64,000 bases of DNA from Candidatus Woesearchaeota archaeon (GTDB taxonomy: Archaea; Nanobdellota; Nanobdellia; SCGC-AAA011-G17; GW2011-AR18): assembly GCA_018302765.1 (NCBI GenBank), contig JAGVZG010000001.1, positions 68,482-132,481 on the forward strand. The letters are read 5' to 3'. Position numbers and translations under genes: made by a program. The notes below the pieces were generated by a model, which saw only the letters and a program-made list of their open reading frames with translations, searched no databases and was not told the DNA's origin. Shown one piece after another: positions 4,723-36,091 of the stretch (positions within the stretch are counted from its first letter, which is position 1; each line of letters opens with the position of its first letter).

Positions 4723-6333
4723 ATGACTAGTTTTACTGCTGATGAAATTGCTTTATTGGCAAGATATGTTTCGGACCCTAATGAAAATATATTTGTTGTT
4801 AGTGGATTAACCGGTATAATTGGTGCAGTTTATGCGCGTTATAGTAGATCACCAACAGGTTTTAGAGAGACATTTCTTAGAGAATTCTTGAATAATGGAA
4901 ATTTGGATCCGAGAAGAGCAGATGAATTAATAGAGAGGGTCTTGGTTGCATATGGTGATGATTCTGTTGGCGAACTTGAGGGGACTCATCTGTCTATTGA
5001 GAACATATCTATTTTAGCCACAAAAGAAATTGAAGACAGGAGAATAGGTGGCTCTCCAATAGAACAATCAACCAGGTACATAATATATAATACTAAAGAT
5101 GATAATGGGAGATTTAGGTTTTTTAGAGATCCTAAAATTATGGCTTCTGAATTTGGACAAAGATGTGAAGACACACTTAATTTTGTTTTTCAAACTTATT
5201 CTGAATTAGTCTCTTTATTGCAAGATTATTTTAAAAAATTAAAACCTATTGAAGATACACAGTATGCTATTAGAGCTGGAGATGAAAGGGAGTATATGCT
5301 TAGTGATTTATCAGAAGAAAGAGACTTAAGAGCTTTTAGATTGACTTATAAGAATGATATTAAGACAAAGGCATGTGATGTAACCAGAGTTTTATTACCT
5401 GCTGCAACATTAACCAATATTGGTATTTTTGGCAATGGAAGATTTTTTCAGGGTTTGCTTTCACATTTATATACGTTAGATGCTTTTGAAATGAATGATA
5501 TTGCTGCTAGGGCACATACTGCTTTGAATACAGTGATGCCAAGATATGTCAAGAGAGCTAGCCGTAGTTATTATCTGCATTCTGTTGATGAGAATATGAA
5601 AGATTTATCTAATAGTATTTTTAGCAGTGTAACTCCAGATAATGATGAGGATGTTGTTTTGCTTGATAATCCAAAGAATGATAAGGAGTATATGGATTTT
5701 TTATTGGCTGTAATGTTGTATAAATATTCATTATGTCCTATGAGGCAAATTAGAAGTGTTATTAGTAAATTACCAGATGAAAGAAAAATTGAGATTTTTA
5801 ATACTTATATTTGTAATAGAGAAAATAGAAGAAACAGGCCAGGCAGGGCTTTAGAATTTGGATATCCTTTGACTTTTGATTTAACTTTAGACTATGGAGA
5901 CTATAGGGATTTAGAAAGGCATAGAATATTGACACAAGAAAGACAAATGTTAACTCCTGATATTGATTTTGTAATATCTGATGAAATAGATGCAGTTGGT
6001 TTTAGAGGCAGAGTAAATGAAGCAGTTGAAAGGTCTGCTGAGCTTTATAATTTACTAAAGAAAGATTTTCCTTATGAAGCACAGTATGCTGTTTTACTTG
6101 GATTTAAAATTAGATGGATGGTGGGAATGAATCCTAGAGAAGCTATGCATATGCTGGAACTAAGAACTGGAAAGCAAGGCCATCCAAGATATAGGGCTAT
6201 GTGTCAGTCAATGCATAACTTGATTTCTCAGAGATGGCCTTTAATTGGTGAATCCATGAGTTTTGTTGACCATAGATCTTATTATTGGAGCAGAGCAGAG
6301 TCTGAAGCTGGTCAAAGAAGGAGAGAAAAATAA
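4723..6333 (+). CDS. thyX: long-form flavin-dependent thymidylate synthase-like protein (ThyX-like)
   Basis: Contains an RHR motif (DLERHRILTQE) and an ARYSRS segment reminiscent of ThyX. At 536 aa it is about twice the length of canonical ThyX. Confidence 0.5.
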   Translation: MTSFTADEIALLARYVSDPNENIFVVSGLTGIIGAVYARYSRSPTGFRETFLREFLNNGNLDPRRADELIERVLVAYGDDSVGELEGTHLSIENISILATKEIEDRRIGGSPIEQSTRYIIYNTKDDNGRFRFFRDPKIMASEFGQRCEDTLNFVFQTYSELVSLLQDYFKKLKPIEDTQYAIRAGDEREYMLSDLSEERDLRAFRLTYKNDIKTKACDVTRVLLPAATLTNIGIFGNGRFFQGLLSHLYTLDAFEMNDIAARAHTALNTVMPRYVKRASRSYYLHSVDENMKDLSNSIFSSVTPDNDEDVVLLDNPKNDKEYMDFLLAVMLYKYSLCPMRQIRSVISKLPDERKIEIFNTYICNRENRRNRPGRALEFGYPLTFDLTLDYGDYRDLERHRILTQERQMLTPDIDFVISDEIDAVGFRGRVNEAVERSAELYNLLKKDFPYEAQYAVLLGFKIRWMVGMNPREAMHMLELRTGKQGHPRYRAMCQSMHNLISQRWPLIGESMSFVDHRSYYWSRAESEAGQRRREK

Positions 6334-6407
6334 TTATTTAGTTAATATACATTCTGCATAATCGAAATTTATTTTTATTAGTATTATTGTTTATATTTTG
6401 ATGCTAT

Positions 6408-7349
6408 TTGATTAATCGTGAATATTTTAATTATGATATGTTAAGACTATTCTGGTATTTTGTATGTGAGAGACAGAGCGTCTGGTATAAGCGTTTTTGT
6501 TGTAAATTAGATCCGCCATGGACCAAAGATATAATTTTACAAAAAGAGAGATTTACTAATGTTTATAGAGAATTAGATCCTGGAACGATTTACGCTATTA
6601 ATAATATACTTGAGGTTGATGCTCCAAAACAAGATAAAATTTTCAATACCATGTTCTATCGTTTGGTTGGTAGTTCCAATACTCACAAAGAAGTTGGATT
6701 TCAGAAACTAAGTTATTTTAATCCAGAGCATTTAGAGGCAAAGATGAAATATATTAGGGACGTTGAAAAGAAGTCTGTTTTTACTGCAGCTTATATGGTT
6801 AGTGGTTATTCCAAAATGGGTTCAAAAGATAAGGTAGAAAATGTTGTCAGGTTATTTACCAAACTGAGAAATTCTTTTGACTCTATTTATTCAGATATTC
6901 AAGGTTGCAAGAATTCTGAAGAGGTTTATAATGTTATTAGAGGTTTGTATGGTTTTGGCAATTTTTTATCATATCAGATATTGGTTGACTTGCTTTATCC
7001 TTTGAGAATATGTAAAGGCAAGAGTCTTTTACCTTATTCACATGATGACTGGGCAAGTGCAGGGCCTGGAGCAAAAATAGGAATCGAATTATTATTGAAA
7101 AAAGGCTTAAAGTTTAGCAATCTTGATGTAATGATGTGGTTAAGAAAAAATCAGTGTGAAGAATTTTTGAGGTTTGGCTTAAATTTTAATTATTTAACTG
7201 ATGACAAAGGTGATAAAATTGAGCTGTCTTTAGCAAACATACAGAACTGCCTTTGCGAATTTCATAAATACATTAAGATTAGGGATGGAACTGGAAGAGG
7301 AAGAAGAAAGTTTACTAGTGGTTTTTTTAATGTAAACAAAATATCCTAA
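6408..7349 (+). CDS. hypothetical protein (Trp/Tyr-rich N-terminus, no P-loop)
   Basis: 313-aa ORF. Its stop overlaps the convergent HIT gene. It is adjacent to the ThyX-like gene. Confidence 0.45.
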   Translation: MINREYFNYDMLRLFWYFVCERQSVWYKRFCCKLDPPWTKDIILQKERFTNVYRELDPGTIYAINNILEVDAPKQDKIFNTMFYRLVGSSNTHKEVGFQKLSYFNPEHLEAKMKYIRDVEKKSVFTAAYMVSGYSKMGSKDKVENVVRLFTKLRNSFDSIYSDIQGCKNSEEVYNVIRGLYGFGNFLSYQILVDLLYPLRICKGKSLLPYSHDDWASAGPGAKIGIELLLKKGLKFSNLDVMMWLRKNQCEEFLRFGLNFNYLTDDKGDKIELSLANIQNCLCEFHKYIKIRDGTGRGRRKFTSGFFNVNKIS

Positions 7350-10279: not shown

Positions 10280-11178
10280 AGTGATTTTCTAGATGTATGA
10301 ACAGATATTAATTCTTCACCGCTAGATATTATTGTTTCTAAAATACTTTTTCTTAATTTATCTATTCCTTTCGCTGACAGCACAATCTTGTCATCTATTA
10401 TAGTGGTGCTTTGCAAGTTGAATTTTTTTCTTAAAATATTGGCTACATTCTCTAAATTTGTAGTTTTTATTTCCAGCTGTTCACTTGAACCTTTCTTTAA
10501 TGATTCTATATCTGAATTAATAATTATTTTTCCAGCATCAAAAATTAAAACATAATCAACAATCATTTCCAATTCTTCCATATGATGACTACTAATAATA
10601 ATAGTTACGCCTTTTTTTTCTGATAAAAACTTAATCACATTCAGCAATTGTTTTTGTCCAATGGGATCCAGAGCAGTAGTAGGTTCGTCCAATATTAATA
10701 TTTCAGGATCGTGCATTAGAGCTTGTATAATTAGTAATTTTTGTTTCATACCAGAACTAAATGTTTCTATTTTCTTTTCTATAGCATTATCTAAATCAAA
10801 ATTCTTTAGAAATTCTTGAGCATAATTAATGGCTTTATCTTTATCCATTCCAGATAATCCTCCCATATATATTAAATAATCTAATGGAAGCATATCGCCG
10901 TATAGTGCTGGCTTTTCAGGAACGTAACCAATTTTGGAATAAATTTTTGTCAGCCCGCCAGCAATGTTAAATTTGACATTTCCAAAAGTAGGCTTAATCA
11001 AGCCCATAAGCATTTTTATTGTTGTTGTTTTACCAGAACCATTTTCTCCGACTAAACCATAAACTTTGCCTTTATTTATACTAAAGCTTATATCATCAAC
11101 TGCTTTAAATAAACCTTTTCTTGTTTTGAAATATTTTTTTATGTTGTTTACTTCTATTATCGTTTCATTCTTTTCCAT
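10246..11178 (-). CDS. ABC transporter ATP-binding protein
   Basis: Walker A GENGSGKTT, ABC signature FSSGMKQK, Walker B ILILDEPT, and an H-loop. Confidence 0.85.
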   Translation of the reverse strand: MEKNETIIEVNNIKKYFKTRKGLFKAVDDISFSINKGKVYGLVGENGSGKTTTIKMLMGLIKPTFGNVKFNIAGGLTKIYSKIGYVPEKPALYGDMLPLDYLIYMGGLSGMDKDKAINYAQEFLKNFDLDNAIEKKIETFSSGMKQKLLIIQALMHDPEILILDEPTTALDPIGQKQLLNVIKFLSEKKGVTIIISSHHMEELEMIVDYVLIFDAGKIIINSDIESLKKGSSEQLEIKTTNLENVANILRKKFNLQSTTIIDDKIVLSAKGIDKLRKSILETIISSGEELISVHTSRKSLWSVVMEKLKK

Positions 11179-14015
11179 TTTAGTATACTTCCTATTGCTA
11201 AAAATGATATTAAAATAAGTGCTATTATGTATTGTGAGATTGAAGTACTTCTAGATATATTTACAGTCAGGTAATCAACATTTGAGACTGTTGTTCCTGG
11301 TATTGTACTTAGAACAATTAAATTATGTTGGCCTGCTGATAATTTTATATCTTCTGAGTTACCAAGTGTTGATGTATAAAATTGATTGTCAGCGTATATT
11401 AATTTTAAATCTCCATTTGTAAATTGTATGTTAAAATCTCCTTTGAAGTATGCATTATCTGCTAAATTTAGTATAGATTGTGGCTTGCTTAGTTCTACAT
11501 CATTTGAATATATTTTACTATCGTATATAGATAGAGGCATTAAGGATATAATTTTTATTTTGTAGTCATTTAAATCAACTAGTATATTACTTGTTGGCCT
11601 AAAGGCTTCTCCACTTGTGCCATATTTTTGAGTTTCACTGGATTTAATTATTAGGTAATTTCCTGCAATATCTATATTTTTTAGTTCTCTAATGTCGATG
11701 TTCTGGTTGAATTTTCCTTTTTCATATACAATGTTACTTTTAGAAGAAGAAACATCAGTTACTATATCGTAACTATTTATAACAGATTTTGAGATTTTAT
11801 CAATGCAATATAGTTTTAAGTTAGAGCTTCCATCACTGCCAACTACAACGACGTCTTTTCTTTCATCCCCGCCACAATTATAAATCAAAACAGAATCTTT
11901 TCCAGGATTTAAGTAGTTAGGCAAGAAATCTAAAATTACATTGTTATTTTCATCTACTAAGACCGGAGCTCTTTCTGAATAATACAGAAGATGTTCACTG
12001 TCTAAAATTTCAGTAAACTGTAAATTATTAAAACTTTCTTCATTTACAACAGATAAGTCATTAACTCTGTATCTTAATATTTTGTTTCCACCAAATAATA
12101 TTATATTATTTCCAATTATATACTTGTGCTGCTGTATAAAATAAGTACCATTAATTATTTTGCTCTTTATCAGATTGTATTTTGCTCCATCAACAATACC
12201 AAACTTATCATTGCTTACAACTAAAACCTCTTTAACACCATCGTTGTTTATATCCTTAGTGCCATCTGTAAAAGAAAAATAAAAGTCTATATTTCCATCT
12301 TTGATCTCAACTTTATTCTTCTCAAATGTTGCAAGGCTTACTTCATAAGTATGTCCAGAATACAATAAGATAAATATTTTATTGCCTAAGTAAGCATAAC
12401 TGCTAATTTGCATTTTTTTCCCTATGTCAGAAGATTCCCAAAAAATCTTTTCATTCTGCAGTTTAAAAAGTTCATCTTGTGATACTTTATTTTTATTTTC
12501 TAATTTTGTTACATCTTCTCTAACGCTAATTATATTTTTCTCTATAGCTGGCTTATCACTTGCATTTGCAGCTGCTAACTTGGTCTGTAATTCATTAAAT
12601 TTGGTTTGCTTTTCAGATATTGACTTAAAATTACTATTTATAGAATTATTAACAGAACTAATTTTATTTATTATATCATCAATTATATCTGCCTGTTCTG
12701 CAGGAGAAACTTGGAAACTTATTTGCTTTAAAGCACTGGTTTTTGGGTATAAAATTCCTAAGGAATTTATATCAATGCCGCTTCCAAATAAAACTAAAAC
12801 CTCTTTAACACCATCGTTATTAATGTCATTTATTTCTTCTAGTCTAGAAATCTGAACGTTTTGTAGTTTGGTATCATCTACAGTACCAGAATATTGTTTA
12901 TATTTATAACTAAACGGCCAGTTTTTACTTATTATGAATTTAGAACTATCTAAATTTAAATTTACAAACTGTTTGTCAATTGAAAAAGTTCCTACTAATT
13001 TATTGTTTTTATATATGTTTACATTATTGTTACTATATGTCAAAATCAATGAATTATCAAACCAAGCTATTTTTGATGAAGAGTCTAAACTTATATTGCT
13101 AACATCAGCTATGTATTTTAATTCATTATCTTTTAGTACTTTAAGTTGTTTGTCCTGCACTATAAATGCTTGCTCATCATCTATGTTTGGCTGGTTTGTG
13201 GTGTCTAATTTAGTCTCTTCACTTCCAAATGTATTATAAATATAAAATTTATTTTCAAATTCATCAACTAAAATAATTTTATCACTAATAGCACTTACAA
13301 GTGTTTTTTGCAAACTAAAGCTGCTGTATTTATTTAATCTAGAATCATAGACAGTAAATTCAGTAGTAGTTCTGGCAGAATAAACTAATTTATACTGCAC
13401 AATAAAATTGCTTGTTAGAAAATACTTTTCCTGTCCGGTTTTTATGCTTTTTTCCTTTATTTTATTAAAATTTAAGTCATATACAACTATTTTTTGTGGT
13501 GTAATAATCACAAAATTATTTCCTAAAACACCAAAGTTTATTATATAATTTCCGGCATTTATTACTTTATTTATTTCACCGTTAATTGATTCATATATAT
13601 TATTAAAGTTTGAAAAAAATGTTCTTCCATTGTTTTTTAATATTTTTGTGGTTGGTGTAGGATAATTATTCTTGTAAGTTTTTTTTGTTATTGGAATTGT
13701 TTTAATTACTTTACCTTGTTTGCCATCTATAATTTTAGTGCTGGGAACAATAAAACTTTGCGAGCCAATTAAAATATCTTGATAACCATTACCATTTACA
13801 TCTTCTATTATTTCAAGGTCATTTATTTTGTCTTCATCAAAAAAGCTCCACATAAATTCTCCTTCTTTAGAAAATGCTAAAATATTACTTCCAGAACCAA
13901 ATAAAATGTAATTTGATGAAGATTTACTTATACTAAATTCAGCATAGCCTGCTGCACCAACAACCGGAAAAATTACTAAAGCCATCAAAATTAAGTATAT
14001 TGTTTGTTTTAGCAT
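11157..14015 (-). CDS. large surface protein with beta-propeller-like (FG-GAP/VCBS-like DxNGDG) repeats, central coiled coil and C-terminal TM anchor
   Basis: 952 aa with an N-terminal signal peptide and repeated motifs VNGNGYQDILIGS, NNDGVKEVLV (x2) and CGGDERKDVVVVGSDG. A heptad-like Lys/Glu stretch is present. The C-terminus is hydrophobic followed by KWKRMKR. It overlaps the ABC ATPase start. Confidence 0.6.
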   Translation of the reverse strand: MLKQTIYLILMALVIFPVVGAAGYAEFSISKSSSNYILFGSGSNILAFSKEGEFMWSFFDEDKINDLEIIEDVNGNGYQDILIGSQSFIVPSTKIIDGKQGKVIKTIPITKKTYKNNYPTPTTKILKNNGRTFFSNFNNIYESINGEINKVINAGNYIINFGVLGNNFVIITPQKIVVYDLNFNKIKEKSIKTGQEKYFLTSNFIVQYKLVYSARTTTEFTVYDSRLNKYSSFSLQKTLVSAISDKIILVDEFENKFYIYNTFGSEETKLDTTNQPNIDDEQAFIVQDKQLKVLKDNELKYIADVSNISLDSSSKIAWFDNSLILTYSNNNVNIYKNNKLVGTFSIDKQFVNLNLDSSKFIISKNWPFSYKYKQYSGTVDDTKLQNVQISRLEEINDINNDGVKEVLVLFGSGIDINSLGILYPKTSALKQISFQVSPAEQADIIDDIINKISSVNNSINSNFKSISEKQTKFNELQTKLAAANASDKPAIEKNIISVREDVTKLENKNKVSQDELFKLQNEKIFWESSDIGKKMQISSYAYLGNKIFILLYSGHTYEVSLATFEKNKVEIKDGNIDFYFSFTDGTKDINNDGVKEVLVVSNDKFGIVDGAKYNLIKSKIINGTYFIQQHKYIIGNNIILFGGNKILRYRVNDLSVVNEESFNNLQFTEILDSEHLLYYSERAPVLVDENNNVILDFLPNYLNPGKDSVLIYNCGGDERKDVVVVGSDGSSNLKLYCIDKISKSVINSYDIVTDVSSSKSNIVYEKGKFNQNIDIRELKNIDIAGNYLIIKSSETQKYGTSGEAFRPTSNILVDLNDYKIKIISLMPLSIYDSKIYSNDVELSKPQSILNLADNAYFKGDFNIQFTNGDLKLIYADNQFYTSTLGNSEDIKLSAGQHNLIVLSTIPGTTVSNVDYLTVNISRSTSISQYIIALILISFLAIGSILKWKRMKR

Positions 14016-14060: not shown

Positions 14061-15521
14061 TTATTTAACATTTCCTATCGGAATTAATTTTGTTACAGGT
14101 TTAGAAATTCCTGCTTTAGCTAATGCATCAATTACGTCATTTATTTCTTTGTATGCAGATCCTGCTTCTTCAGCTAATCCAGACATTGATCCAGACTTAA
14201 CATAAATCCCTCTTTGTTCCATTTCTTTTTGTAGTTGATCTCCTCTAAATTCTTTCTTGGCTTGATGCCTTGACATTGTTCTGCCAGAACCATGTGCTGT
14301 ACTTGAGAAAGTTTCATTGTCTGCTTTTTCTGTACCGACTAATAAATAACTTCCTGTTTCCATTGAGCCGCCAATTATTACTGGTGATCCTATATCTCTA
14401 TATAATTTTGAAACCTCTGAATTTCCTGGACCCTGACACAAAGTTGCGCCTTTTCTATGAACAACTAATTTTTTCTTTTTTCCATCAATTTTAAATTCTT
14501 GTAATCTTGCTAAATTATGAGCTACATCATAGACACAGTGCATCTCCATATCTTCTGCTTTAGTTTTGAAAATTTTTTCAAAACCTTCTCTTATTCTATG
14601 TAAAATTACTTGTCTATTTGCGAAAGCCATATTTGCTGCACAAGCCATTGCTTTGTAATAATCTTGTCCTTCCTTGCTTGAAAATGGAGCACATGATAAT
14701 TCTTTATCTAAAATTTTTATTTTTTCTCTTTGCATTACATTTTCAAAAATTTTTAAGTAGTCTGTAGCAACCTGATGACCAAAACCTCTAGAGCCACAGT
14801 GGAACATTATTACAATCTGATCTGGAAAAATTCCAAATTTCCTTGCTATATCTTTATCAATAATATTTTCTGGTTTTACATGCTGAATTTCTAGATAATG
14901 ATTACCTGAGCCAAGTGTTCCTAGTTGATCAATTCCTCTTTGTCTTGCTTTTTGTGAAACTTTACTTGAGTCAGCCCAGTCAATTCTTCCATTACTTTCT
15001 ATTCTTTCTAAGTCTTTTTGCCAACCATAATTATTTTCAACACACCATTTAACACCTTCTTCCATTACATTATTGAATTGCTGATTATTTATTTTTACAA
15101 AACCTTTGCAGCCTACACCAGATGGTACTGTTTGGAAGAAAGTATTCACTAGTTCTTTTAATTTAGGCTGAACGTCTTTAATTGTGAGATTTGTTGTAAC
15201 AAGCCTCATGCCACAATTTATATCAAAACCAATTCCTCCTGGAGAGATTACTCCTGTCTCAGCATCCATTGCAGCAACTCCACCAATTGGAAAACCATAC
15301 CCCCAATGCCCATCAGGCATGCATAGTGCAGCTTTTTGTATTCCAGGTAGGCATGCTACATTGGTTACTTGGTCAAACACTCCGGGATCCATTGTTTCTA
15401 ATAATTTTTTAGTTGCGTAAATCCTTGCAGGTACGTTCATACCTTGCTTGAAACTAGTTGGGATTTCCCAAACTGCTTCTTCTATCTGTTTTGTATCTTT
15501 TGGTATATTTGACATAATCAA
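14061..15521 (-). CDS. rtcB: RNA-splicing ligase RtcB
   Basis: 486 aa. Metal-binding motifs typical of RtcB are present, including DGHWGYGFPIGGV, HCGSRGFGH and NHYLE. Confidence 0.9.
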   Translation of the reverse strand: MIMSNIPKDTKQIEEAVWEIPTSFKQGMNVPARIYATKKLLETMDPGVFDQVTNVACLPGIQKAALCMPDGHWGYGFPIGGVAAMDAETGVISPGGIGFDINCGMRLVTTNLTIKDVQPKLKELVNTFFQTVPSGVGCKGFVKINNQQFNNVMEEGVKWCVENNYGWQKDLERIESNGRIDWADSSKVSQKARQRGIDQLGTLGSGNHYLEIQHVKPENIIDKDIARKFGIFPDQIVIMFHCGSRGFGHQVATDYLKIFENVMQREKIKILDKELSCAPFSSKEGQDYYKAMACAANMAFANRQVILHRIREGFEKIFKTKAEDMEMHCVYDVAHNLARLQEFKIDGKKKKLVVHRKGATLCQGPGNSEVSKLYRDIGSPVIIGGSMETGSYLLVGTEKADNETFSSTAHGSGRTMSRHQAKKEFRGDQLQKEMEQRGIYVKSGSMSGLAEEAGSAYKEINDVIDALAKAGISKPVTKLIPIGNVK

Positions 15522-15590: not shown

Positions 15591-15679
15591 TATATTCAAC
15601 GGCTTTGTGTAAGAAGTAGCTGGATTTAATCACTTTATACACAGATTTTGGACTTTTTACACAAAGCTATATTCAACGG
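15591..15679. promoter_or_regulatory. divergent rtcB/downstream-gene intergenic region with direct repeat TATATTCAACGG (x2) nested with 10-bp inverted repeat CTTTGTGTAA/TTACACAAAG
   Basis: Direct repeats at 15591-15602 and 15668-15679. Inverted repeat arms at 15603-15612 and 15657-15666. A TATA-like TTTATAAAT at 15684-15692 lies ~33 bp upstream of the 15725 ATG. Confidence 0.3.
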
Positions 15680-15724
15680 AACATTTATAAATAATTAACT
15701 ATTGCTTAGTAGTGTATTTAAAAT

Positions 15725-17041
15725 ATGGCAGACGTAGTTGTTCCGGATGGATCTAGCAGAGATGACGATACAGATAAAATTATAACTATAGATATGAGTG
15801 CAATAGCAGATGATACTACGCCTTTACTTCAACAAGTTCATAATGAAAAAAGTGAACCAATGGCTATACCTAATTCTTTAAATTTAAATCTTATTCATGA
15901 TACTAAAATTCATGAGCAAATTGAAGATTTGCGTGTTAGAGACTGTCCTAGTTTAGAAAAGGTTTTGATAGGTTTGGGATATGATGATTCACACAATATT
16001 GTTAATGTATCTGTAGAAGACGCTGATCCTATTTATTATAAGGTTGGAACTGGTCTTGTATTTCAAGTAGACTTAGAAATTAATATTGGTACGACTACAA
16101 GTGGTTTTGTTGGAATTGATTATAGGACATGTGAAATTCCGAATTTGCATGTTTTGGCAAGAAATTCTTCTAATTTAAATCGTAATAATAAATTAGCGAG
16201 CTTGTATAAGAAATGGGTAGATTTTAGTTATAAACATAATTTTAGTAAAATTGTAGGAATGATGGACAGCGATGATGTCGTTAGAATATTCAGAATTTTT
16301 GATTATGATAATATTGAAAATGTTGAAATTCATAAAGTTGAATTAGTTAAAAATGAATATTATTTAGAGGCTTCTTGTTTTTATAGATCTTCTGTTGGGA
16401 GTATAAAATCAAGTTTATTTTGTGGAAAAATTCCAGCGAGTAAAATTTTATTAGACGTACGTTATTTGGAAGCAAATGTGATGAATTTGAAGAGAAAATC
16501 TTCAGCAGGAAAAATTATATCTATTGGCGCTTTTGGACTTGCTAGTTTGCTTGGCTTAGCTTATTTAGGATTGAGTACTCAGGATGTTTCTGGCTATAGT
16601 CCTGATTTATTGACTTCAAGTGGCGGTGATTTAGTAAGTCCTGCAGATATGACGCTTCATGAAGATCTTAAGTCTGAATATTTAGGTGACGCTAGCAATG
16701 GCGTTGCGGTTGATTTAGGAAGTAGTTCTAGTCATCCACCAGTTAGAATTTCTTTTATGGCACGCAGACCTAAAACTAAGGGCAGTTTATTTGTTAAGGT
16801 TGGTGGTGCTTCAGATGGAAGACATGTATTTAAGTATACTGCTGGAAAAGTAGGTTCTTATAGTACAAAAACAGGTAAGCCATCTTTTTATTCAGATGCA
16901 TTTAATGATTGGGTTGGCACAACTGCTGACAAATATGAAAAAGTTGATTCAGACGGTGTTTATAATAATAAAAATTGCAACAAACCACAGAAAGGTTTAA
17001 TGAAAGATATGCCTGCTTATGTTTGTGCGCAGCCAAAGTAA
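15725..17041 (+). CDS. membrane protein P1: acidic N-terminal domain, central TM helix, C-terminal FKY/CKPQ/AYVC domain (paralog family)
   Basis: TM segment ISIGAFGLASLLGLAYLGL. The C-terminus (VRISFMARRPKTKGSLFVKVGG...VFKY...VYNNKNCNKPQKGLMKDMPAYVCAQPK) is near-identical in key motifs to the 32512 and 33830 proteins. Confidence 0.55.
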   Translation: MADVVVPDGSSRDDDTDKIITIDMSAIADDTTPLLQQVHNEKSEPMAIPNSLNLNLIHDTKIHEQIEDLRVRDCPSLEKVLIGLGYDDSHNIVNVSVEDADPIYYKVGTGLVFQVDLEINIGTTTSGFVGIDYRTCEIPNLHVLARNSSNLNRNNKLASLYKKWVDFSYKHNFSKIVGMMDSDDVVRIFRIFDYDNIENVEIHKVELVKNEYYLEASCFYRSSVGSIKSSLFCGKIPASKILLDVRYLEANVMNLKRKSSAGKIISIGAFGLASLLGLAYLGLSTQDVSGYSPDLLTSSGGDLVSPADMTLHEDLKSEYLGDASNGVAVDLGSSSSHPPVRISFMARRPKTKGSLFVKVGGASDGRHVFKYTAGKVGSYSTKTGKPSFYSDAFNDWVGTTADKYEKVDSDGVYNNKNCNKPQKGLMKDMPAYVCAQPK

Positions 17042-17102
17042 GATTCTTAGCAATAGAAATGTTTATTTATCTTCACTATTTTAAAGTAGTGCAAATGATA
17101 AA

Positions 17103-18176
17103 ATGGCTGCAATAATTCCAGATGTTTTACCTTTATTGATTGGACAAGATTTATTAGTTAGATATAGTGACGCTGCTACATTGCCTCCTTTTTATGAGGG
17201 GTATGTTGCTAAACTTGTCGATTCTTCGTTAGGAGGTATAAGTAGGATAGCTGATTTAGACACTTTGACTGCAGATCCATGTGATTTAGACGGTATGTTT
17301 TTTAATAGTACTAATGACACTGCTGCCAGGATAGAATACTTTAGAATTTATAGTGGTCGTATTGATAGATTTGATGCAAGTTCTGGAAAATTGTTTTACA
17401 GAGCTGACGCTAGTCTAGGAGTAATTGGAAGTATTGGTGACAGCAGCAGTATATTTGAAGTTGGTAGAAGAGAATATTTATTTTGCTATTACAATGCTAG
17501 AAATGGTAAATGTTCTGTATTAAACGTTAATAATGATTTATGTAATGTGAGTTCTTATCTTCTTCCTTTTCTAAAAACATTTGTTCCTATTACGCATGTT
17601 GAATGCAGCAGTTCTCCTGTAGGAGTTATATATAATAAAGTATTTTTGGATAAGTTAGACATTCCTGAAGATTTTGTTAAAGGTATTCAGGGCGTTGTGC
17701 TTAAAGAAATAAAAAGAGAAAAGTCAAGTAATAGTTATATTTTATCAGGTACAGTTTATTATGCTAACCCAAATGCCAGAGGATTTTCGTTTGTTAAAGG
17801 TGCTTTTAGTAAATTTGATAATTTATTTTTAGAACATGGAACTAATTTTTTTGTAGATGGTGATTATTTGAAATCATGTGGCGTTGATTTAGGCCAAGAT
17901 AATGACTATTCTTATGGTAGTCTTGTTATCAGTAGAGGCACTAATCTTGATTGGAAATTGATTGGATTGGCTGGAGGTATTGCTTTAGGAGTTTTATCTG
18001 CAATTTGGATTGCTTATAATATTGTTCCTGGTTATTCTGCTGTAATGGCTCCAAGTGTTGATGCTGGCGCTGACTTAATTAAATCCTCTGCAGATAAAGA
18101 CAATAGTGGACCAAAATATAAGAAAAAAATTTCTAAACCTAAAAAACATAAAGCCAAGAAAAAATCATCTAAATAA
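17103..18176 (+). CDS. tail-anchored Cys-containing protein P2 with Lys-rich C-terminus
   Basis: 357 aa with several N-x-S/T sequons, a TM helix near the C-terminus (LIGLAGGIALGVLSAIWIAY) and the tail KKKISKPKKHKAKKKSSK. Its stop abuts the convergent archease stop. Confidence 0.5.
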   Translation: MAAIIPDVLPLLIGQDLLVRYSDAATLPPFYEGYVAKLVDSSLGGISRIADLDTLTADPCDLDGMFFNSTNDTAARIEYFRIYSGRIDRFDASSGKLFYRADASLGVIGSIGDSSSIFEVGRREYLFCYYNARNGKCSVLNVNNDLCNVSSYLLPFLKTFVPITHVECSSSPVGVIYNKVFLDKLDIPEDFVKGIQGVVLKEIKREKSSNSYILSGTVYYANPNARGFSFVKGAFSKFDNLFLEHGTNFFVDGDYLKSCGVDLGQDNDYSYGSLVISRGTNLDWKLIGLAGGIALGVLSAIWIAYNIVPGYSAVMAPSVDAGADLIKSSADKDNSGPKYKKKISKPKKHKAKKKSSK

Positions 18177-18611
18177 TTAAATGTCAACAAGCACTTTTGC
18201 TTTCCATTTGTCTTCTTCTTTTATTATTTCAAATTCATGCATTGTAATTGCCTTTGCATCGTCATGGAGATCCTGAGTTTCTCTGTTGATAAAATCACCT
18301 TCACATCTTGCAAATATTTCATATACTTTATTTTTGTGTGATATAACAACATCGAACTTGTTAAACAGCAAACCTTCTGTGTCTTTAACAAATATAAGTT
18401 CTGAAAGAAAATCATAAAGAAGATTTTCTATGGAATTTGTTTTTAGTGATATTTCATAATGCTCTTTAGTCTCCAATGTTTTTATGTCTACCATGATTTC
18501 TTCTAGAGCCAGAGCTGAATTTTCAAATAGGCTTTCTAATGTTTTTCCATAGGCTTCAAAAATTATATCTGCTGTGTGTGGTAGAAATTTATACTTCATC
18601 TTCTTTAACAT
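18177..18611 (-). CDS. archease (RtcB activator)
   Basis: 144 aa. The N-terminal FLPHTADIIFEAYG motif (HTAD) and a C-terminal ...KVLVDI match the archease family. Confidence 0.8.
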   Translation of the reverse strand: MLKKMKYKFLPHTADIIFEAYGKTLESLFENSALALEEIMVDIKTLETKEHYEISLKTNSIENLLYDFLSELIFVKDTEGLLFNKFDVVISHKNKVYEIFARCEGDFINRETQDLHDDAKAITMHEFEIIKEEDKWKAKVLVDI

Positions 18612-19053
18612 TCCTTCTTTCTACAACAATATTTATTTGCGTTGTCACACCTTCTTTATCTTCCCTTATTAAAATATTTCTGTCAGTTATTTGTTTTACA
18701 ATGTCTTTTATTGTGTAATCTGACTTCATTTTATCTCCAATCAAAACAGCATTTAGCATATATTCATTTGAAATTTGTTCTATTGTGATCTGCTTTATTG
18801 CTGATAATACAAATAACTCGTTATTTGCTAGTTCAAATAATCTTTTTAGAAATTGGAAAAGCAGATTTTTAAGATCCCTTGCTCTTATTATCAGTGTTTT
18901 TGTAATAGCTAGATCTATTTCTTCTGTGTTTATTACAATTTCAAATAATGACTTTGCTATTTTTGAGAACGATGCTTCTAAACTTGATGCTTTTTCTGAT
19001 ATTGTTATTTCTTCGACTTTGTGCTTTGACATAAGCTTTTTAATGCAATGCAC
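18589..19053 (-). CDS. archease-like paralog lacking the HTAD motif
   Basis: 154 aa. ASSLEASFSKIAKSLFEIV and ARDLKNLLFQFLKRLFELANNELFV align with archease core helices, but the metal-binding H-T-A-D is replaced by T-I-S-E. It overlaps the archease start by 23 nt. Confidence 0.45.
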   Translation of the reverse strand: MHCIKKLMSKHKVEEITISEKASSLEASFSKIAKSLFEIVINTEEIDLAITKTLIIRARDLKNLLFQFLKRLFELANNELFVLSAIKQITIEQISNEYMLNAVLIGDKMKSDYTIKDIVKQITDRNILIREDKEGVTTQINIVVERRNVKEDEV

Positions 19054-19144: not shown

Positions 19145-21649
19145 ATGGGAAAGGTTTTGAACTACGTAGGTAGAGGCATAAGAAATTTTGTTAGAAGGCA
19201 CAAGAAAGGGATTTCGCTAGCTGGAGCTTTAGTATTTGGCACTTCTGCTGCTTTAACTTGTGGCATTTATAAGTATATAACTACTCCTCCAAAGGATTTT
19301 GGAAGAGTAGGGCAATACTGGCATACTTACAAAGAACGTGAAAAATTAAAAAGTATAGAAAATAATGGTGCTTTAGAAAATAAGTTGAATATAAATAGAA
19401 AAGATAATGGTTCTTCAGGCGGGGCTTATCCTGATCCTAATATAATAGGCATTTGGCCGTTAACTCCGGATAACGGAATTAAGGTAGTTACTTCCAGTGG
19501 CAGAGAAATTGTTACTAGATACGCCACTTGGAACTATGCTTCTTTGGATGAAGTACCTAAAACTGTTATAAATTCTGTTTTAAGTGTAGAAGATGCAGAC
19601 TATCTTGAGCATAAAGGAGTAAACTGGAATTTAAGGAAGATTAAGGGTTTATTTTCTCCTATTCTTGGTGGAAGACGTGTTGGTGGAAGTGGCATAACAG
19701 AACAAGTATCTAAAATGATGTTTACTGATTTTGGTAAGATAAAGCCTAGGAGATCAGCAATGCAGAAACTTCGTGAGTTGCGTTATGCTTATTATTTAGA
19801 TAGTGTGCTTGGCAAGGAACAAGTATTAGAATTTTATTTGAATACAACGCCATTAGGAGACAGTTGTTATGGCGTAAAGTGCGCTGCTATGAATTACTTT
19901 GGTAAGGAACTGAGTAATTTAACTTTTCCTGAGAGTTTGTTTTTAGCAGCAATTATTAAAAATCCAGGAGCAAATCCAAAGAATAGTGGTTTTGAATTTC
20001 AAAAACGTAGATATGACATGCTCTGTGAGTCTTTGCACGATCTTGAAAGGATTACTGAAGATCAATATAAGGAGTGCAAATCTGCAGATGTGATTAAAAT
20101 GAAGCCTGGCTTAAAAAGAAGAAGATCTCCAATAAGTGATCCTAGTGTTTTTAGTGCTTTGGCTTATGAATTAGAAAATTATGATTTTGATTTAGTTGAC
20201 AATGTTGTTCATCAGCCAAATCCAGGTTTTGGGTTTACAGTTTATACTACAATAAATGATGAGATGCATGACGCTTTAGGCCAAGCATTTGTGGATGGAC
20301 TTAAACCAAATCAAGAACAGGTTCAACTTGGCGCTGGCGCTGTGCTGAATAGCGAGGCTCAAATAGTTGCTATTTTAGGCAGGACAGACTACAGTACGCT
20401 AAGCGGAGCTTGGAGTTTTAGGAATCTTGCTGTAGCTGGGAGACGTGCTGCTGCTTCTTCAATAAAGCCTTTTGTTTATGGTTCTTGCTATGACCAAGAG
20501 AATTCAAATATTACATGCAAACCAGGCAATGTTATTTCTGATTCTAAAAAAGGATTGAGAAATCCTCCTCATAATTTTGATGGAAAGTATGAAAGAAGAA
20601 TGTCTTTAGCAGAAGCTTTAACTTCATCGAATAATGTAATAGCTTATAAAGTGTGTCGTAGAATTGGACTTAGAAATGTACTTCCAGTTATAGAAGCTGT
20701 TGGATTTGATGTTGCTGAATATGAAACAGTATTTAGGGACTGCAGAAATACTGCTTTAGGCTCAGGGCGTGTAACTCCTTTAGAACTTGCTGCTGCTTAT
20801 CGTGTTTTTGTAAAAGACGATGATGGTAATTTTTCTGCAGAATATAGAAAGCCAACAATTATTGATAGGGTTGATTTATGGTCTTTTAATTACAAAGTAA
20901 ATCTATCTGCAACAAAAGTTTTTCGTAGTGCTAACACAGTTGAATCTGTTAGAATTAGCTTAGACAGGCTTGGAAATAAAATTGTTGGCAGTAAATATGA
21001 AGCAGATATAGGTTTTAAGACTGGCACTCCAAACCCCACTACACATTGGTATTTAGGTGGAGTTCTTGACCTTGATAGTGTTTCTTATTCTATAGGTTTT
21101 CTGGCTGTGGCTAAACCTAAAGTTGTACCTTCAAAAAAAAATCCTAAGGTTTTAGTAAAAGTTTATCCTAATAAGTTGTATGCTAGTGGCGTTCTTGGTC
21201 CTGTGGTAAAAAGTTTTGTTGACGGAGTTGCTCCTAGAAAAGAAATGAAGCCTATTGATCTATATGTTCCTGCTGTTGCTAGCTTGGACAGCGTATGCAG
21301 TAATTATAATTTAGCAAGCGTTGAGCTAACTTTGCCTAGTGCTGATAATCACGATCTTGAGACACTGGGAGATATTTTAAGTGCTTGCTCTTCTTATTTT
21401 TCTGCTAATAATGAAAATGAAAAGTATGGCTTATTTTCTTACGCTGCAGGCCGTGTCTGGGAGACTTTGTACAGTAATGAAGCAACGTCTTCTCCAGGCA
21501 GCAAAACTGCTTTGCTTTACTATAGCAGTGCAATTAATTCTTATAAAACAGCTGTTCAGGAAGACAGTTTTAGTAGTTTAGCTGAAGAAAGAATTAGAGA
21601 TTTAAAGATTAAAAGAGAACAGGAAGCTAATAGAATTCATGCAGATTAA
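19145..21649 (+). CDS. class A penicillin-binding protein (bifunctional GT51 peptidoglycan glycosyltransferase / D,D-transpeptidase), N-terminal TM anchor
   Basis: GT51 motifs EDADYLEHKG, GGSGITEQ, QKLRE and VLEFYLNTTPLG...YGVKCAAMNYFGK...LTFPESLFLAAIIKNP. Transpeptidase motifs SSIKP (SxxK), SSN (SxN) and KTGT appear with canonical spacing. A TM segment lies near the N-terminus. Confidence 0.8.
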   Translation: MGKVLNYVGRGIRNFVRRHKKGISLAGALVFGTSAALTCGIYKYITTPPKDFGRVGQYWHTYKEREKLKSIENNGALENKLNINRKDNGSSGGAYPDPNIIGIWPLTPDNGIKVVTSSGREIVTRYATWNYASLDEVPKTVINSVLSVEDADYLEHKGVNWNLRKIKGLFSPILGGRRVGGSGITEQVSKMMFTDFGKIKPRRSAMQKLRELRYAYYLDSVLGKEQVLEFYLNTTPLGDSCYGVKCAAMNYFGKELSNLTFPESLFLAAIIKNPGANPKNSGFEFQKRRYDMLCESLHDLERITEDQYKECKSADVIKMKPGLKRRRSPISDPSVFSALAYELENYDFDLVDNVVHQPNPGFGFTVYTTINDEMHDALGQAFVDGLKPNQEQVQLGAGAVLNSEAQIVAILGRTDYSTLSGAWSFRNLAVAGRRAAASSIKPFVYGSCYDQENSNITCKPGNVISDSKKGLRNPPHNFDGKYERRMSLAEALTSSNNVIAYKVCRRIGLRNVLPVIEAVGFDVAEYETVFRDCRNTALGSGRVTPLELAAAYRVFVKDDDGNFSAEYRKPTIIDRVDLWSFNYKVNLSATKVFRSANTVESVRISLDRLGNKIVGSKYEADIGFKTGTPNPTTHWYLGGVLDLDSVSYSIGFLAVAKPKVVPSKKNPKVLVKVYPNKLYASGVLGPVVKSFVDGVAPRKEMKPIDLYVPAVASLDSVCSNYNLASVELTLPSADNHDLETLGDILSACSSYFSANNENEKYGLFSYAAGRVWETLYSNEATSSPGSKTALLYYSSAINSYKTAVQEDSFSSLAEERIRDLKIKREQEANRIHAD

Positions 21650-27003: not shown

Positions 27004-27894
27004 ATGGTTTTGATAAGAAAAAAATCAATAGATAGCAAGGAGTATTATTATTTGGAACATTCATTTAGAGAAGCAGGTTCTGTCAAAAAAAAAGAACTTT
27101 ACTTAGGAACTGAGATTCCCAAAAATATTGAAGAAATCAAGATAAAATTTACTGAAGAAATATATAAAGAAAGATGGAGTAAAACATTAGAAGAGATAAA
27201 AAAAGAGTATAATAAAGAAAATAGATCAATACCAGAATCGTTAACTGAAAAAGAAATAGAATCTTTTATGATTAAATTTACTTATAATACTCAAAGGATA
27301 GAAGGTTCAAGGTTAACATTAAGAGAAACTGCAAATTTATTAGAAAAAGGAATAACGCCCAAAGAAAAACCTGTTAGAGATGTTAGAGAAGCAGAAGCAC
27401 ATAAAAAAGTATTCTATGAAGTGTTAAAATTCAAAAAAGACTTGTCATTAGATTTAATTCTTCATTGGCATAGAATGTTGTTTTTAGAAACAAAAAAAGA
27501 TATGGCTGGAATACTAAGAAAACACCAGGTTGCAATATCTGGGAGTAAGTTTATACCTTCCTCTCCTGTAGAAGTTTATTTATTATTAAGGGAATTCTTT
27601 AAATGGTATGAAAAAAATAAAAGTAAGATAAATCCTGTAGAATTAGCAGCATGCGTTCATTTAAAATTTGTTACAATACACCCATTTGGAGATGGGAATG
27701 GGAGAATATCAAGACTGATGATGAATTTTGTTCTCAAAAAAAATAAATATCCAATGTTAAATATAAAATATGAAGGAAGAAATAGTTATTATAATGCGCT
27801 TGAAAGATCGCAAGTAAAGAAAAATGAAGGAATATTTATACAATGGTTTATAAAAACTTATATAAAAGAAAATAAAAGATATTTGAAGAAATAA
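27004..27894 (+). CDS. fic: Fic-family protein (AMPylase-type) with putative inhibitory helix
   Basis: Fic motif HPFGDGNGRISR (HPFx[DE]GNGR). An upstream TQRIEG matches the [ST]xxxE[GN] auto-inhibition motif. Confidence 0.8.
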   Translation: MVLIRKKSIDSKEYYYLEHSFREAGSVKKKELYLGTEIPKNIEEIKIKFTEEIYKERWSKTLEEIKKEYNKENRSIPESLTEKEIESFMIKFTYNTQRIEGSRLTLRETANLLEKGITPKEKPVRDVREAEAHKKVFYEVLKFKKDLSLDLILHWHRMLFLETKKDMAGILRKHQVAISGSKFIPSSPVEVYLLLREFFKWYEKNKSKINPVELAACVHLKFVTIHPFGDGNGRISRLMMNFVLKKNKYPMLNIKYEGRNSYYNALERSQVKKNEGIFIQWFIKTYIKENKRYLKK

Positions 27895-30055: not shown

Positions 30056-31186
30056 TTATTTCATCATATTATTTTTATAAATAAATTTGTCAATTTGCTT
30101 TTTTGCCAATTCTCTTTTTCTTTGATGTTCTTTTAGAAAAGAATTTATTTTTTCAATTAATATTTCTTTCAGTTCTCCTGTTAATAATTTTCCTGATTTG
30201 TAATCGTAGTAAATTTTTTCTAGTTTTTTATCATCAGGTTCAAACAACATTCTTAACCATTGGTAGCTTATATCTATTTCTGGATTGCCGCCTTTTTTTC
30301 TGTGTTCCTCTACTGTTGCTTGACCGCCTGAAAATGCGTACTTTCTGATTTTTTTAGCTACTACTTCAGGCGGATCTATTGTGTGTAGTGCAGATGATTC
30401 TTCTGATGATGACATTTTTCCACTTGATCCTGTTAGTGATGGCAAGAACATGCACTGAATACTTGCTGGTTTGTAATAACCTAATTTTGGTAGAATATCT
30501 CTTGTAATTCTGAAATGTGGATCTTGATCGATGGCATGTGGTATTAAACAAGGGATATTTTTATTTTTTATAACTGAAGGTAGGAATGCTGGAACAGTTT
30601 GCATTGAAGTATAAAATATGGCACCTATATTTGTTTGTTCATTTAATCCAAAAGAGGATTTAACCATAGAAAATGTTATTTTTTTAGCGATTTTGCATGC
30701 TTCTTTATACATTAAGTCAGCATGTTTTGTATCAACTAAGAATTTTGTTTTTTTCTGATCAAAACCAATAGCAATAACGTCTAGCATATTTTCATGTAAA
30801 TATTTTTCTGTATCTTCAGATGTTAATTCTTGTTTGAATAAAAATTTTTCTTCATCTGGAAATTGGAACCACAATTCCGCATCAAATTGGTCTTGCAACC
30901 ACTTTGTGAACAACCAAGGCATTAAATGTCCTAAATGTACATTACCAGATGGAGCCCTGCCACTATATAAGTAAAATTTATTTCCTTTTTCGTATTCGTT
31001 AAGCAGCCAATTTAAATCTCTATGAGCAAAGAATACTTTTCTTCTTAACATGAAATGTAGATCTTTTGTGTGTTTTTTTATTCTTGTTAGGATTTCATCA
31101 TTAATTTTTTCAACGCCAAATTCCTTGATTAATCTGTCGTAATCAACTTCCCCTTTTACATCCCATGGAGTTACTGTGAAATTCAT
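30056..31186 (-). CDS. trpS: tryptophanyl-tRNA synthetase (archaeal/eukaryotic type)
   Basis: Class I HIGH-type motif PSGNVHLGHL and KMSSS (KMSKS variant typical of TrpRS); 376 aa. Confidence 0.75.
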   Translation of the reverse strand: MNFTVTPWDVKGEVDYDRLIKEFGVEKINDEILTRIKKHTKDLHFMLRRKVFFAHRDLNWLLNEYEKGNKFYLYSGRAPSGNVHLGHLMPWLFTKWLQDQFDAELWFQFPDEEKFLFKQELTSEDTEKYLHENMLDVIAIGFDQKKTKFLVDTKHADLMYKEACKIAKKITFSMVKSSFGLNEQTNIGAIFYTSMQTVPAFLPSVIKNKNIPCLIPHAIDQDPHFRITRDILPKLGYYKPASIQCMFLPSLTGSSGKMSSSEESSALHTIDPPEVVAKKIRKYAFSGGQATVEEHRKKGGNPEIDISYQWLRMLFEPDDKKLEKIYYDYKSGKLLTGELKEILIEKINSFLKEHQRKRELAKKQIDKFIYKNNMMK

Positions 31187-31282
31187 ACAAGAATTGGTTT
31201 TAGCTTATTTTTAATTTTATTGTTTTACTTTTTAATGGTGTTAATATGCTTTTGAAGCTAGTTTTATAAGTTTTTTGTATTT

Positions 31283-32281
31283 TTGTTATTTATGGTTTAT
31301 AAAGAAGCAGCAAATATGCACACTGTAGGAGATGGCGAAATACCTTATTTAATTATTAGGCTATTAAACGGTAGAGGAAGCCTTAAGAATTTAGACATTA
31401 ATGCAGTGATATGTTCTCCTTTAGAAAGTCAACATAGTGATATAATTAGAACTGGAGGACTAAATGCTATTAATTGTGTTTATTCTGATTTAAGTCCTGA
31501 TTATATAAGAATGAAAATTGCAGAGAAGGGCAACTATAAATTTAATGTTCTTTTGGTTTTTCCCGGTGGTCCTGTTGTTGATTCTTTTATGTATGATAAA
31601 GTTTCTTCTGCTTTGGAAATATCAATGGAAGAAATTCAAATGCCTATTAATCTAATTGTTTCTGATGATACAATACTTAATGATAGAGCTTTTGTTCCTA
31701 CTGATGTTGAATTTATATTGAGATACGGATATAAATATTTTGTTGGAAAAAAAGAATATGAAAAATTTGATTTAGACGTTCCTGATAAATTAAAAGCCAG
31801 ATTTGCAAACAACTTGTCTGCTGTAAGAGCTAATTTATTAACTTCTAGACATTACTTAGCTTATAATGAAGAAAAGTTCTATGAAAATTTTAAAGAATCT
31901 GTGCGTATTGCAATTGGCTCTATAGGCCTTATGACATCAATACTCAGAAGTGACGGCCACAACATACCTGACGTTAAATTACTAAGCAACTTAAAAACAT
32001 ATCTTGGCGAATTAGACTTTAGTGGGCTTATTGAATTAGTTGATGAAGGTAAATTAGACCACAATTACAATCACTTAAGAGGAAGAGCTGACGAAGTGTT
32101 AAAATATTCTAAGGTTTGTGTTAACATTTTGGAAAACTTAGTAAGATCTTATTTGAGAACTTATAGAGTTGACAGTGATATTTATGAACAATTTCTTGTT
32201 ACTAGATGTTCTGCAGAAAGACTTGTTGGGCTACAAGCATTTAGGGGAAATTCTCTGCAGCATTTAGAGTGCAGAATTTAG
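31283..32281 (+). CDS. hypothetical protein
   Basis: 332-aa ORF. Confidence 0.45.
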   Translation: MLFMVYKEAANMHTVGDGEIPYLIIRLLNGRGSLKNLDINAVICSPLESQHSDIIRTGGLNAINCVYSDLSPDYIRMKIAEKGNYKFNVLLVFPGGPVVDSFMYDKVSSALEISMEEIQMPINLIVSDDTILNDRAFVPTDVEFILRYGYKYFVGKKEYEKFDLDVPDKLKARFANNLSAVRANLLTSRHYLAYNEEKFYENFKESVRIAIGSIGLMTSILRSDGHNIPDVKLLSNLKTYLGELDFSGLIELVDEGKLDHNYNHLRGRADEVLKYSKVCVNILENLVRSYLRTYRVDSDIYEQFLVTRCSAERLVGLQAFRGNSLQHLECRI

Positions 32282-33774: not shown

Positions 33775-33829
33775 TAAGTTTTAAATAGTAGTAATCACTC
33801 TTGTGTGATAACACCATTGGGAGGAGTAA

Positions 33830-36061: not shown

Positions 36062-36091
36062 ATTTTTATAGCTTTAATTTTTTAAAAAATC

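Follow-up and report, generated by a model that had tools for sequence, protein, structure and literature searches.

A stretch of 64,000 nucleotides from the genome of a Candidatus Woesearchaeota archaeon (contig JAGVZG010000001.1), referred to here as the window, contains between its genes for the RNA ligase RtcB and for archease a gene whose product, p1, ends in a basic domain of ∼85 residues, the FKY domain. The same domain is present in p3 and p4, the proteins of genes 32512–33774 and 33830–36061 (743 residues). We propose that p1 comes from a small family of modular envelope proteins, lineage-specific and evolving very fast, whose known members are restricted to a narrow group of groundwater Woesearchaeota; the basic FKY domain would be the binding unit that these proteins have in common outside the cytoplasm. 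We place the chance that this reading is correct at about even. Homology among the members, a modular architecture, a narrow distribution, the basic character of the domain and the absence of a family or fold match are documented below. Loci of related genomes carry L-numbers (L001, L002, L005, L083 and so on) and proteins from the family search carry numbers of the form P00xx.

Results

The FKY domain and its conservation

In BLASTP comparisons the FKY domain of p1 matches that of p3 with an expectation value (E) of 3e-17 (51% identity over 84 residues) and that of p4 with E = 5e-6, and the p3 and p4 copies match each other with E = 7e-9. A hidden Markov model (HMM) of the three copies, run on the six-frame translation of the window, retrieved exactly these three, the next match having E = 1.6, and no further copy was found in the 20 kb upstream of the window. 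The recurrence of the p1 C-terminal domain in the 32512 and 33830 proteins, which had been proposed in an earlier note made from the DNA sequence alone, thus withstands alignment statistics, and the domain matches no Pfam family. Judged by these comparisons, the three FKY copies of this genome are genuine paralogues. All three are encoded on the forward strand. In p1 the domain comprises residues 346–438 (16760–17038), has an isoelectric point (pI) of 9.7 and a net charge of +9, and is predicted to form a β-hairpin, a long helix and a C-terminal strand. The p3 copy (residues 99–184; 32806–33063) lies after an N-terminal hydrophobic anchor and an acidic linker and before a C-domain that is shared with P0035 and P0039, and the p4 copy (residues 21–109; 33890–34156) directly follows a signal peptide. 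All eight FKY domains are basic (pI 9.3–10.0, net charge +5 to +11) and the linkers adjoining them are acidic.

Two features that the earlier note had read as hallmarks of the domain hold in part. The cysteine pair (Cys418 and Cys434 in p1), described there as invariant and suggestive of a disulfide, is kept in five members, whereas P0038, P0039 and the protein of L005 lack it; from the alignment it is a feature of a subfamily and not of the whole family. The motif ISF.ARRP occurs three times in the six-frame translation of the window, once in p1 (ISFMARRP, residues 342–349, 16748–16771, forward strand, at the junction of linker and domain) and twice in p4, as the note had said; however, as an isolated match ISF[MK]ARRP has E = 0.26 and is not significant. 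The two p4 copies (ISFKARRP) count as one independent occurrence because both lie inside a tandem duplication of 135 nucleotides (45 residues; 99% identical; 34686–34945, forward strand) in the Ser/Thr/Pro-rich linker of p4. A p4 allele of 698 residues in the protein cluster is 45 residues shorter than the 743-residue form, as would be expected had one copy of the repeat been lost, and the 45-residue repeat is a copy-number polymorphism in the population.

Placement of the domain relative to the membrane

The segments that precede the FKY domain differ between the proteins. By hydropathy and by eye, it follows a signal peptide in p4, which starts MSLRSLLYAALFLFIGSAE, and in P0037, which starts MSIIKSMYGALASILLLGS, and it follows an N-terminal anchor with the h-region GGLGALVLGLAASSL in p3. 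In p1, in P0039 and in a 420-residue protein of the L005 locus (L005_420, discussed below), it is located after a transmembrane (TM) helix with a positive N-terminal flank and an acidic C-terminal flank. These sequences are consistent with an extracytoplasmic FKY domain, and the extracellular or envelope placement put forward in the earlier note agrees with the signal peptide of p4, the anchor of p3 and the charge bias around the TM helix of p1.

The N-terminal domain of p1 (residues 1–262; 15725–16510, forward strand) is acidic (pI 5.1), lacks a signal peptide and is predicted to be cytoplasmic. It is followed by a single TM helix, IISIGAFGLASLLGLAYLG (residues 264–282; 16514–16570, forward strand), assigned from hydropathy and flanking charge; the adjoining stretches of 15 residues have net charges of +3 on the N-terminal side and −2 on the C-terminal side. 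Because of the positive-inside rule and the presence of a domain of ∼260 residues without a signal peptide, p1 is predicted to be bitopic with the N terminus in and the C terminus out, comprising a cytoplasmic N-domain, one TM helix, an acidic linker and the basic FKY domain outside.

A conserved TCKPC(N)D sequence, which contains a CxxC motif, is present just after the N-terminal hydrophobic segment of p3 (residues 25–29; 32584–32598) and of P0036 (residues 23–27). An atypical lipobox is one possible reading of this sequence and a redox or metal site another, and its CKP echoes the CKPQ of the FKY domain.

Breadth of the family and shuffling of its modules

A full HMMER scan of 1.84 billion cluster representatives with the three-copy profile gave six matches, namely a p4 fragment, P0035 and P0036 (two fragments of a p3 ortholog), P0037 (a p4 ortholog), P0038 (a 97-residue fragment) and P0039 (609 residues). 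Six is a minimum, for neither p1 nor p3 was itself among the matches, presumably since fragments represent their clusters. A word-indexed protein search with p1 returned p1 only, a second search with a seven-sequence FKY alignment added only fragments, and scans of JGI metagenomes (two) and of IMG/VR (one) found no member of the family.

The domain is found in several architectures. P0039 consists of an N-domain of ∼275 residues, a TM helix, a linker, FKY and a C-domain; p1 of an N-domain, a TM helix and FKY; p3 of an anchor, FKY and a C-domain; and p4 and P0037 of a signal peptide, FKY, a mid-domain and a C-terminal region. The p4 orthologs of L001 and L083 lack FKY. The C-domains are related by Smith–Waterman comparison against shuffled sequences (p3–P0035, z = 6.8; P0035–P0039, z = 7.8), and a likeness of the C-domains of p3, P0035 and P0039 to TonB_C (PF03544) was visual only, with no Pfam or NCBIfam match at E <= 1, and was rejected. 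A 31283 protein considered as a split-off N-domain of p3 was likewise rejected (z < 0.6). The P0039 gene is located in L001 between the genes for tryptophanyl-tRNA synthetase (TrpRS) and diphthine synthase (Dph5), which is the same position as that of the p3/p4 locus of the window (30056–37871), and a gene of 545 residues two downstream of P0039 in L001 matches the C-terminal region of p4 (BLASTP 2e-9). L002 and L083 have the same pair of p3-like and p4-like genes, and these two types of gene are adjacent in four organisms. The family is, as far as these alignments resolve it, a mosaic of at least four modules (the N-domain, FKY, the C-domain, and the p4 mid-domain with its C-terminal region) whose combination differs between genomes.

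Divergence from a close relative

A scan of GTDB genomes with rtcB identified L005, where the genes for EF-1alpha, a penicillin-binding protein (PBP) and two archeases are followed by a single opposite-strand gene (L005_420) and then by rtcB. L005_420 is the positional ortholog of p1. Identities between the window and L005 are 95% for EF-1alpha, 88% for RtcB, 74–75% for the archeases, 32% for the PBP and 18% for the p1 ortholog. The N-domains of p1 and L005_420 are nevertheless related (phmmer E = 2.8e-4; Smith–Waterman against shuffles, z = 9.5), and an HMM built from the two matches the N-domain of P0039 (E = 0.0018; Smith–Waterman z = 6.9). The three proteins are collinear, each consisting of an N-domain, a TM helix, a linker and a small C-terminal domain. 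These sequence comparisons indicate that members of the family diverge far faster than the neighbouring genes.

Comparison with known families and folds

No match to the FKY domain, to p1–p4 or to their relatives was found in Pfam, NCBIfam, PHROGs or PADLOC (full proteins, Pfam E <= 1), and a Pfam scan of seven FKY members at E <= 10 gave no recurrent family. Profiles of FKY and of the whole p1 family retrieved nothing from the PDB sequences. AlphaFold2 (AF2), given the seven-sequence FKY alignment, returned a β-hairpin, a long helix and a C-terminal strand with a predicted local distance difference test score (pLDDT) of 77.8 and a predicted template modelling score of 0.67, and in the AF2 model of full-length p1 the domain has an identical topology with pLDDT 80–94. 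It is thus modelled with confidence as a small α/β domain. Foldseek searches with the FKY model gave a best E of 0.8 against the PDB and 2.2 against viral models (BFVD). The FKY domain is therefore new in sequence and without a significant structural neighbour, and the earlier suggestion that it belongs to no characterised family stands.

Two small binding folds were considered and rejected. SPOR domains, as in FtsN, have a ribonucleoprotein-like β-α-β-β-α-β fold, and LysM domains have a compact β-α-α-β fold of about 45 residues. LysM (PF01476) had no Pfam match in the seven FKY members at E <= 10 or in the full proteins at E <= 1; SPOR (PF05036) also had no Pfam match, and the FKY model has a single long helix compared with two in SPOR. 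Family and profile scans of the p1 N-domain revealed no kinase, cyclase, helix-turn-helix (HTH), anti-sigma or other signalling signature. Archease (PF01951) was considered as a source of the N-domain, given weak HMM matches on the archease open reading frames, and was rejected: hhalign, comparing a three-sequence N-domain alignment with a 52-sequence archease alignment, gave a probability of 0.4% over 11 columns, and there was no Pfam match either.

The mid-domain and C-terminal region of p4

The mid-domain of p4 (LPNCITDGSYGILA..., residues about 113–260) is also present in L002 (363–2309) and L001 (7803–9440). A profile of the mid-domain built from p4, P0037 and the L001 protein (7803) matched PDB chains of AA9/GH61 lytic polysaccharide monooxygenases (LPMOs) with a borderline E of 5.8e-4 over 87 residues, in a stretch that includes LP.CI.DG.Y; this likeness concerns only the mid-domain and not p1 or p2. 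The mid-domain has no Pfam AA9 match and, since it starts near residue 113 and FKY precedes it, the mature N terminus lacks the copper-brace histidine (His1). It may be an LPMO-like β-sandwich used for binding. Residues 376–743 of p4 (34956–36058) form a large Gly-rich and apparently β-rich region that is conserved in three organisms (p4, P0037 and L001 7803–9440). This C-terminal region has many invariant glycines, a conserved terminal arginine and no family match, and it is apparently barrel- or sheet-like, in what is a single-membrane archaeon.

The p1 and p2 genes

The two open reading frames that the earlier note had drawn between rtcB and archease are exactly as proposed. The p1 gene (15725–17041, forward strand) encodes 438 residues and p2, the next gene (17103–18176, forward strand), encodes 357; by exact look-up they are MBS3151865.1, annotated as a hypothetical protein of Candidatus Woesearchaeota archaeon, and MBS3151866.1. 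The coding frames contain 0 stop codons compared with 15–73 in the remaining five frames, and the chance of such open frames at the given base composition is ∼1e-15 for p1 and 7e-13 for p2. GC contents at the first, second and third codon positions (GC1, GC2 and GC3) are 0.42–0.44, 0.37–0.39 and 0.16–0.18 (GC3 of 0.18 in p1 and 0.16 in p2), the same pattern as in the rest of the genome, where mean GC3 is 0.196. Hence p1 and p2 are real genes. The Ser/Gly/Asp/Ala/Val-rich composition of p1–p4, which accounts for their higher overall GC content, raised the possibility of recent horizontal transfer; this was ruled out because GC3 is native, and p1, p2, p3 and p4 are native genes and not recent foreign DNA.

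The p2 protein has an acidic N-terminal part of 285 residues, no N-terminal signal by hydropathy, a single hydrophobic helix (residues 286–308; 17958–18026, forward strand) and a C-terminal tail of 49 residues with a net charge of +10 that ends in a poly-Lys run (18114–18173, forward strand). The note had described it as tail-anchored with a poly-Lys C terminus. It may be tail-anchored, in agreement with its single helix near the C terminus and its lack of a signal, but a tail of 49 residues at +10 would normally stay cytoplasmic by the positive-inside rule. The sequons that the note had pointed out in p2 occur at chance frequency (3 observed and 2.4 expected), as do those of p1 (3 observed and 3.7 expected), which lie in the domain predicted to be cytoplasmic. 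No homologue of p2 was found in the protein-collection search, which returned only p2 itself, or by HMM and Smith–Waterman comparisons, and p2 has no match among the PDB sequences. The possibility that p2 is a diverged paralogue of p1, given the similar layout and a shared Y.L.G motif, was rejected: 73 of 2000 shuffled sequences scored at least as high as the real one against the HMM, and comparison with the p1 N-domain gave Smith–Waterman z <= 1.7. In L005, the sole relative to have a p1 ortholog in the archease–rtcB interval, no counterpart of p2 is present at that locus. The proposed two-gene module is thus not conserved, and p2 would be an unrelated, species-specific orphan membrane protein with a layout similar to that of p1 and not a conserved partner.

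The rtcB–archease locus

The rtcB gene (14061–15521, reverse strand; 486 residues, homologues 62–90% identical) is divergent from p1. Two tandem archease genes (18177–18611 and 18589–19053, reverse strand; PF01951, 7.1e-40 and 1.6e-14) are convergent with p2, whose stop codon abuts an archease stop codon. They overlap by 23 nucleotides, the upstream copy is much more divergent (1.6e-14 compared with 7.1e-40), and the duplication is common to L005 (5909–6758). The 203-nucleotide divergent region between rtcB and p1 contains a TATA-like element, TTTATAAATA (15685–15694, forward strand), 31–40 nucleotides upstream of the p1 start, which, in this AT-rich DNA, is a possible archaeal promoter. A direct repeat, TATATTCAACGG, occurs twice in the same region (15593–15604 and 15669–15680) and may be a binding site for a regulator.

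The earlier note had described p1 and p2 as an insertion in an otherwise conserved locus. With p1 and p2 between them, rtcB and archease are 2.65 kb apart in the window, and in many of 80 fetched rtcB loci they are directly adjacent, so the pair does interrupt what is a tight pairing elsewhere. However, in many other Woesearchaeota the gap holds an unrelated six-helix membrane protein of ∼249 residues or other genes, and no archease lies within 10 kb of rtcB in the relatives L016, L003 and L031. The interruption is real and older than the split between the window and L005, in a locus that is variable within the clade. No integrase, tRNA or flanking repeats are present around p1–p2.

On the far side of the archeases is a gene for a class A PBP with GT51 and transpeptidase domains (19145–21649, forward strand) and with all catalytic motifs present (GT51 E149, GGSGITEQ, S438xxK, S494xN and K625TG); it is a neighbour and is not shown to be part of a module with p1. 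An intact class A PBP is found here in an archaeon, and the syntenic PBP of L005 (2971–6003, 1010 residues) is 32% identical next to an EF-1alpha that is 95% identical. The note had placed the PBP directly next to the p1–p2 pair, whereas the two opposite-strand archease genes lie between it and p2. Co-occurrence of the family with PBP, also suggested there, was not borne out by the other FKY loci, since no PBP is near the family at the TrpRS–Dph5 locus or in L001, L002 or L083. A functional link between p1 and the PBP is therefore not supported, synteny being seen in two close relatives only, with two archeases intervening and no PBP at the other FKY loci.

In two close relatives, L005 (8270–11230, 986 residues) and L035 (60–3041, 993 residues), the rtcB genes have an in-frame insertion judged to be an intein, which the rtcB of the window lacks. 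Immediately downstream of rtcB in the window is a gene for a 952-residue protein (11157–14015) with a signal peptide, weak FG-GAP repeats and a C-terminal TM anchor followed by KWKRMKR, of an Ile/Asn/Lys-rich surface type; tblastn found no counterpart in the 2.5 kb beyond the L005 rtcB.

Other genes of the window

At 4723–7349 a 536-residue ThyX-domain protein adjoins a protein with the helical domain of 5-hydroxymethyldeoxyuridine DNA kinase (PF18723, 4.9e-57). Genes for thymidine hypermodification are usually phage-associated, and this pair looks like such genes on an archaeal chromosome. The aspartyl-tRNA synthetase (57376–59139) has a GAD insertion domain (PF02938, 1.5e-24) and belongs to the bacterial type, an unusual finding in an archaeon. 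There is a gene for a Fic/DOC family protein at 27004–27894, and the gene at 45805–47628 encodes a fusion of a PIN-domain protein with a T2SSE-like ATPase.

Discussion

From the observations above we infer the topology, ligand and biological role of the FKY proteins as follows. In p1 the acidic N-domain of ∼260 residues would lie in the cytoplasm and would be connected by a single TM helix and an acidic disordered linker to the basic FKY domain of ∼85 residues outside, p3 would present FKY as a membrane-tethered protein, and p4 would be a secreted or surface protein that carries FKY together with a large C-terminal region rich in Gly and apparently in β-structure. Since the domain moves between proteins and is basic in every member, we propose that FKY is a common unit tethering its carriers to an anionic extracytoplasmic target, with the organism's own surface layer, its glycans and a partner or host envelope as possible targets, and that the rapid divergence may reflect selection on the interface between FKY and its target. 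Several points weigh against this proposal. Basic charge is a weak clue to function. The topologies of p1–p4 come from hydropathy and charge heuristics only and not from a dedicated predictor. The N-domain in the AF2 model of full-length p1 has pLDDT < 50, so that the model is uninformative on the cytoplasmic part. The C-terminal domain of L005_420 matches the FKY profile with a non-significant E of 3.6 and is placed in the family only by collinearity and a short motif.

There is a parallel to the p1 family in Nanoarchaeota, where hypothetical cell-surface proteins show an excess of non-synonymous variation and are the fastest-evolving class (Jarett et al. 2018, PMC6142677). Both sets of proteins are lineage-restricted, unannotated and associated with the membrane or surface, and both diverge much more than housekeeping genes. 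There is no sequence relationship between them, however, and the evidence presented here is of divergence between species together with domain shuffling and not of a within-population dN/dS ratio (non-synonymous to synonymous substitution rates).

That a single genome has FKY on three extracytoplasmic proteins which differ in other respects would also be explained if the domain were a protein–protein docking module through which p1, p3 and p4 join, homotypically or via a common partner, into one envelope complex with p1 as the anchor and p4 as the outer β-rich part. The movement of FKY between subunits of the TrpRS–Dph5 module across genomes and the adjacency of p3-like and p4-like genes in four organisms are in keeping with such a complex; against it, the p1 gene is 15 kb from those of p3 and p4, and the strongly basic character of every copy argues against simple homotypic association, so that we regard docking as rather doubtful. 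The neighbouring class A PBP suggests instead that FKY binds murein or a lipid II-derived glycan and that p1 positions or regulates the PBP in the manner of FtsN/SPOR or LysM proteins of bacteria. FtsN-like proteins combine a TM helix and a linker with a C-terminal domain that is small and basic, and the layout of p1 resembles theirs: like FtsN and the LysM-bearing proteins it would have its N terminus inside and a single TM helix, connected by a flexible linker to an outer α/β domain of small size and basic charge. The order of p1 ortholog, two archeases, PBP and EF-1alpha is kept in L005, the GT51 and transpeptidase motifs of the PBP are intact, and the PBP diverges very fast, as p1 does. 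Yet there is no sequence or significant structural match between p1 and FtsN/SPOR or LysM proteins, the cytoplasmic domain of p1 is large and that of FtsN is short, and, unlike the bacteria with FtsN or LysM, the organism in which p1 neighbours a class A PBP gene is an archaeon not known to have murein. With no PBP at the other FKY loci, we consider a partnership of p1 with the PBP unlikely.

Two further explanations concern p1 itself. The bitopic layout with the N terminus in and the C terminus out, and the sizeable conserved N-domain common to p1, L005_420 and P0039, would be suited to a transmembrane sensor in which FKY senses an external cue and the cytoplasmic N-domain of 260 residues is the output. 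This is quite unlikely given that the N-domain lacks the signalling signatures listed above and that p3 and p4 carry the same outer domain without a cytoplasmic part. As the p1–p2 pair consists of orphan genes on the opposite strand that interrupt two genes adjacent in many genomes, it might also be viral or mobile-element cargo that entered the interval between the archease and rtcB genes; but GC3 and the codon-position pattern are native, the pair lacks an integrase, tRNA and flanking repeats, nothing matches in PHROGs, PADLOC, IMG/VR or BFVD, and a p1 ortholog occupies the same place in L005. Such an origin is very unlikely.

DPANN archaea are regarded as dependent on contact with other cells, and to our knowledge almost nothing is known of the molecules of this contact, and nothing for Woesearchaeota. 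Some Woesearchaeota have been proposed to interact with bacteria (PMC9723730), with which a unit for binding a partner surface would agree. A more speculative extension, to which we give a slim chance, is that this Woesearchaeote is episymbiotic and that p1, p3 and p4 make up a trans-envelope or cell-contact apparatus specific to its lineage. In it, p1 would provide the anchor in membrane and cytoplasm and p3 a tethered stalk, the C-terminal region of p4 could form a pore or sheet in or on the partner envelope, and FKY, as a previously unseen fold, would be both the attachment unit and the determinant of partner specificity.

The proposal that we favour is that of a modular envelope family sharing an extracytoplasmic binding unit. 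Only a few uncultured genomes carry the family, and its value at present is as a well-delimited target and not as a discovery. If FKY is the binding unit envisaged, it would add a new entry to the small extracellular binding domains, and as a native, extracytoplasmic, domain-shuffled and rapidly diverging family, the FKY proteins are candidates for tests of partner recognition or envelope construction.

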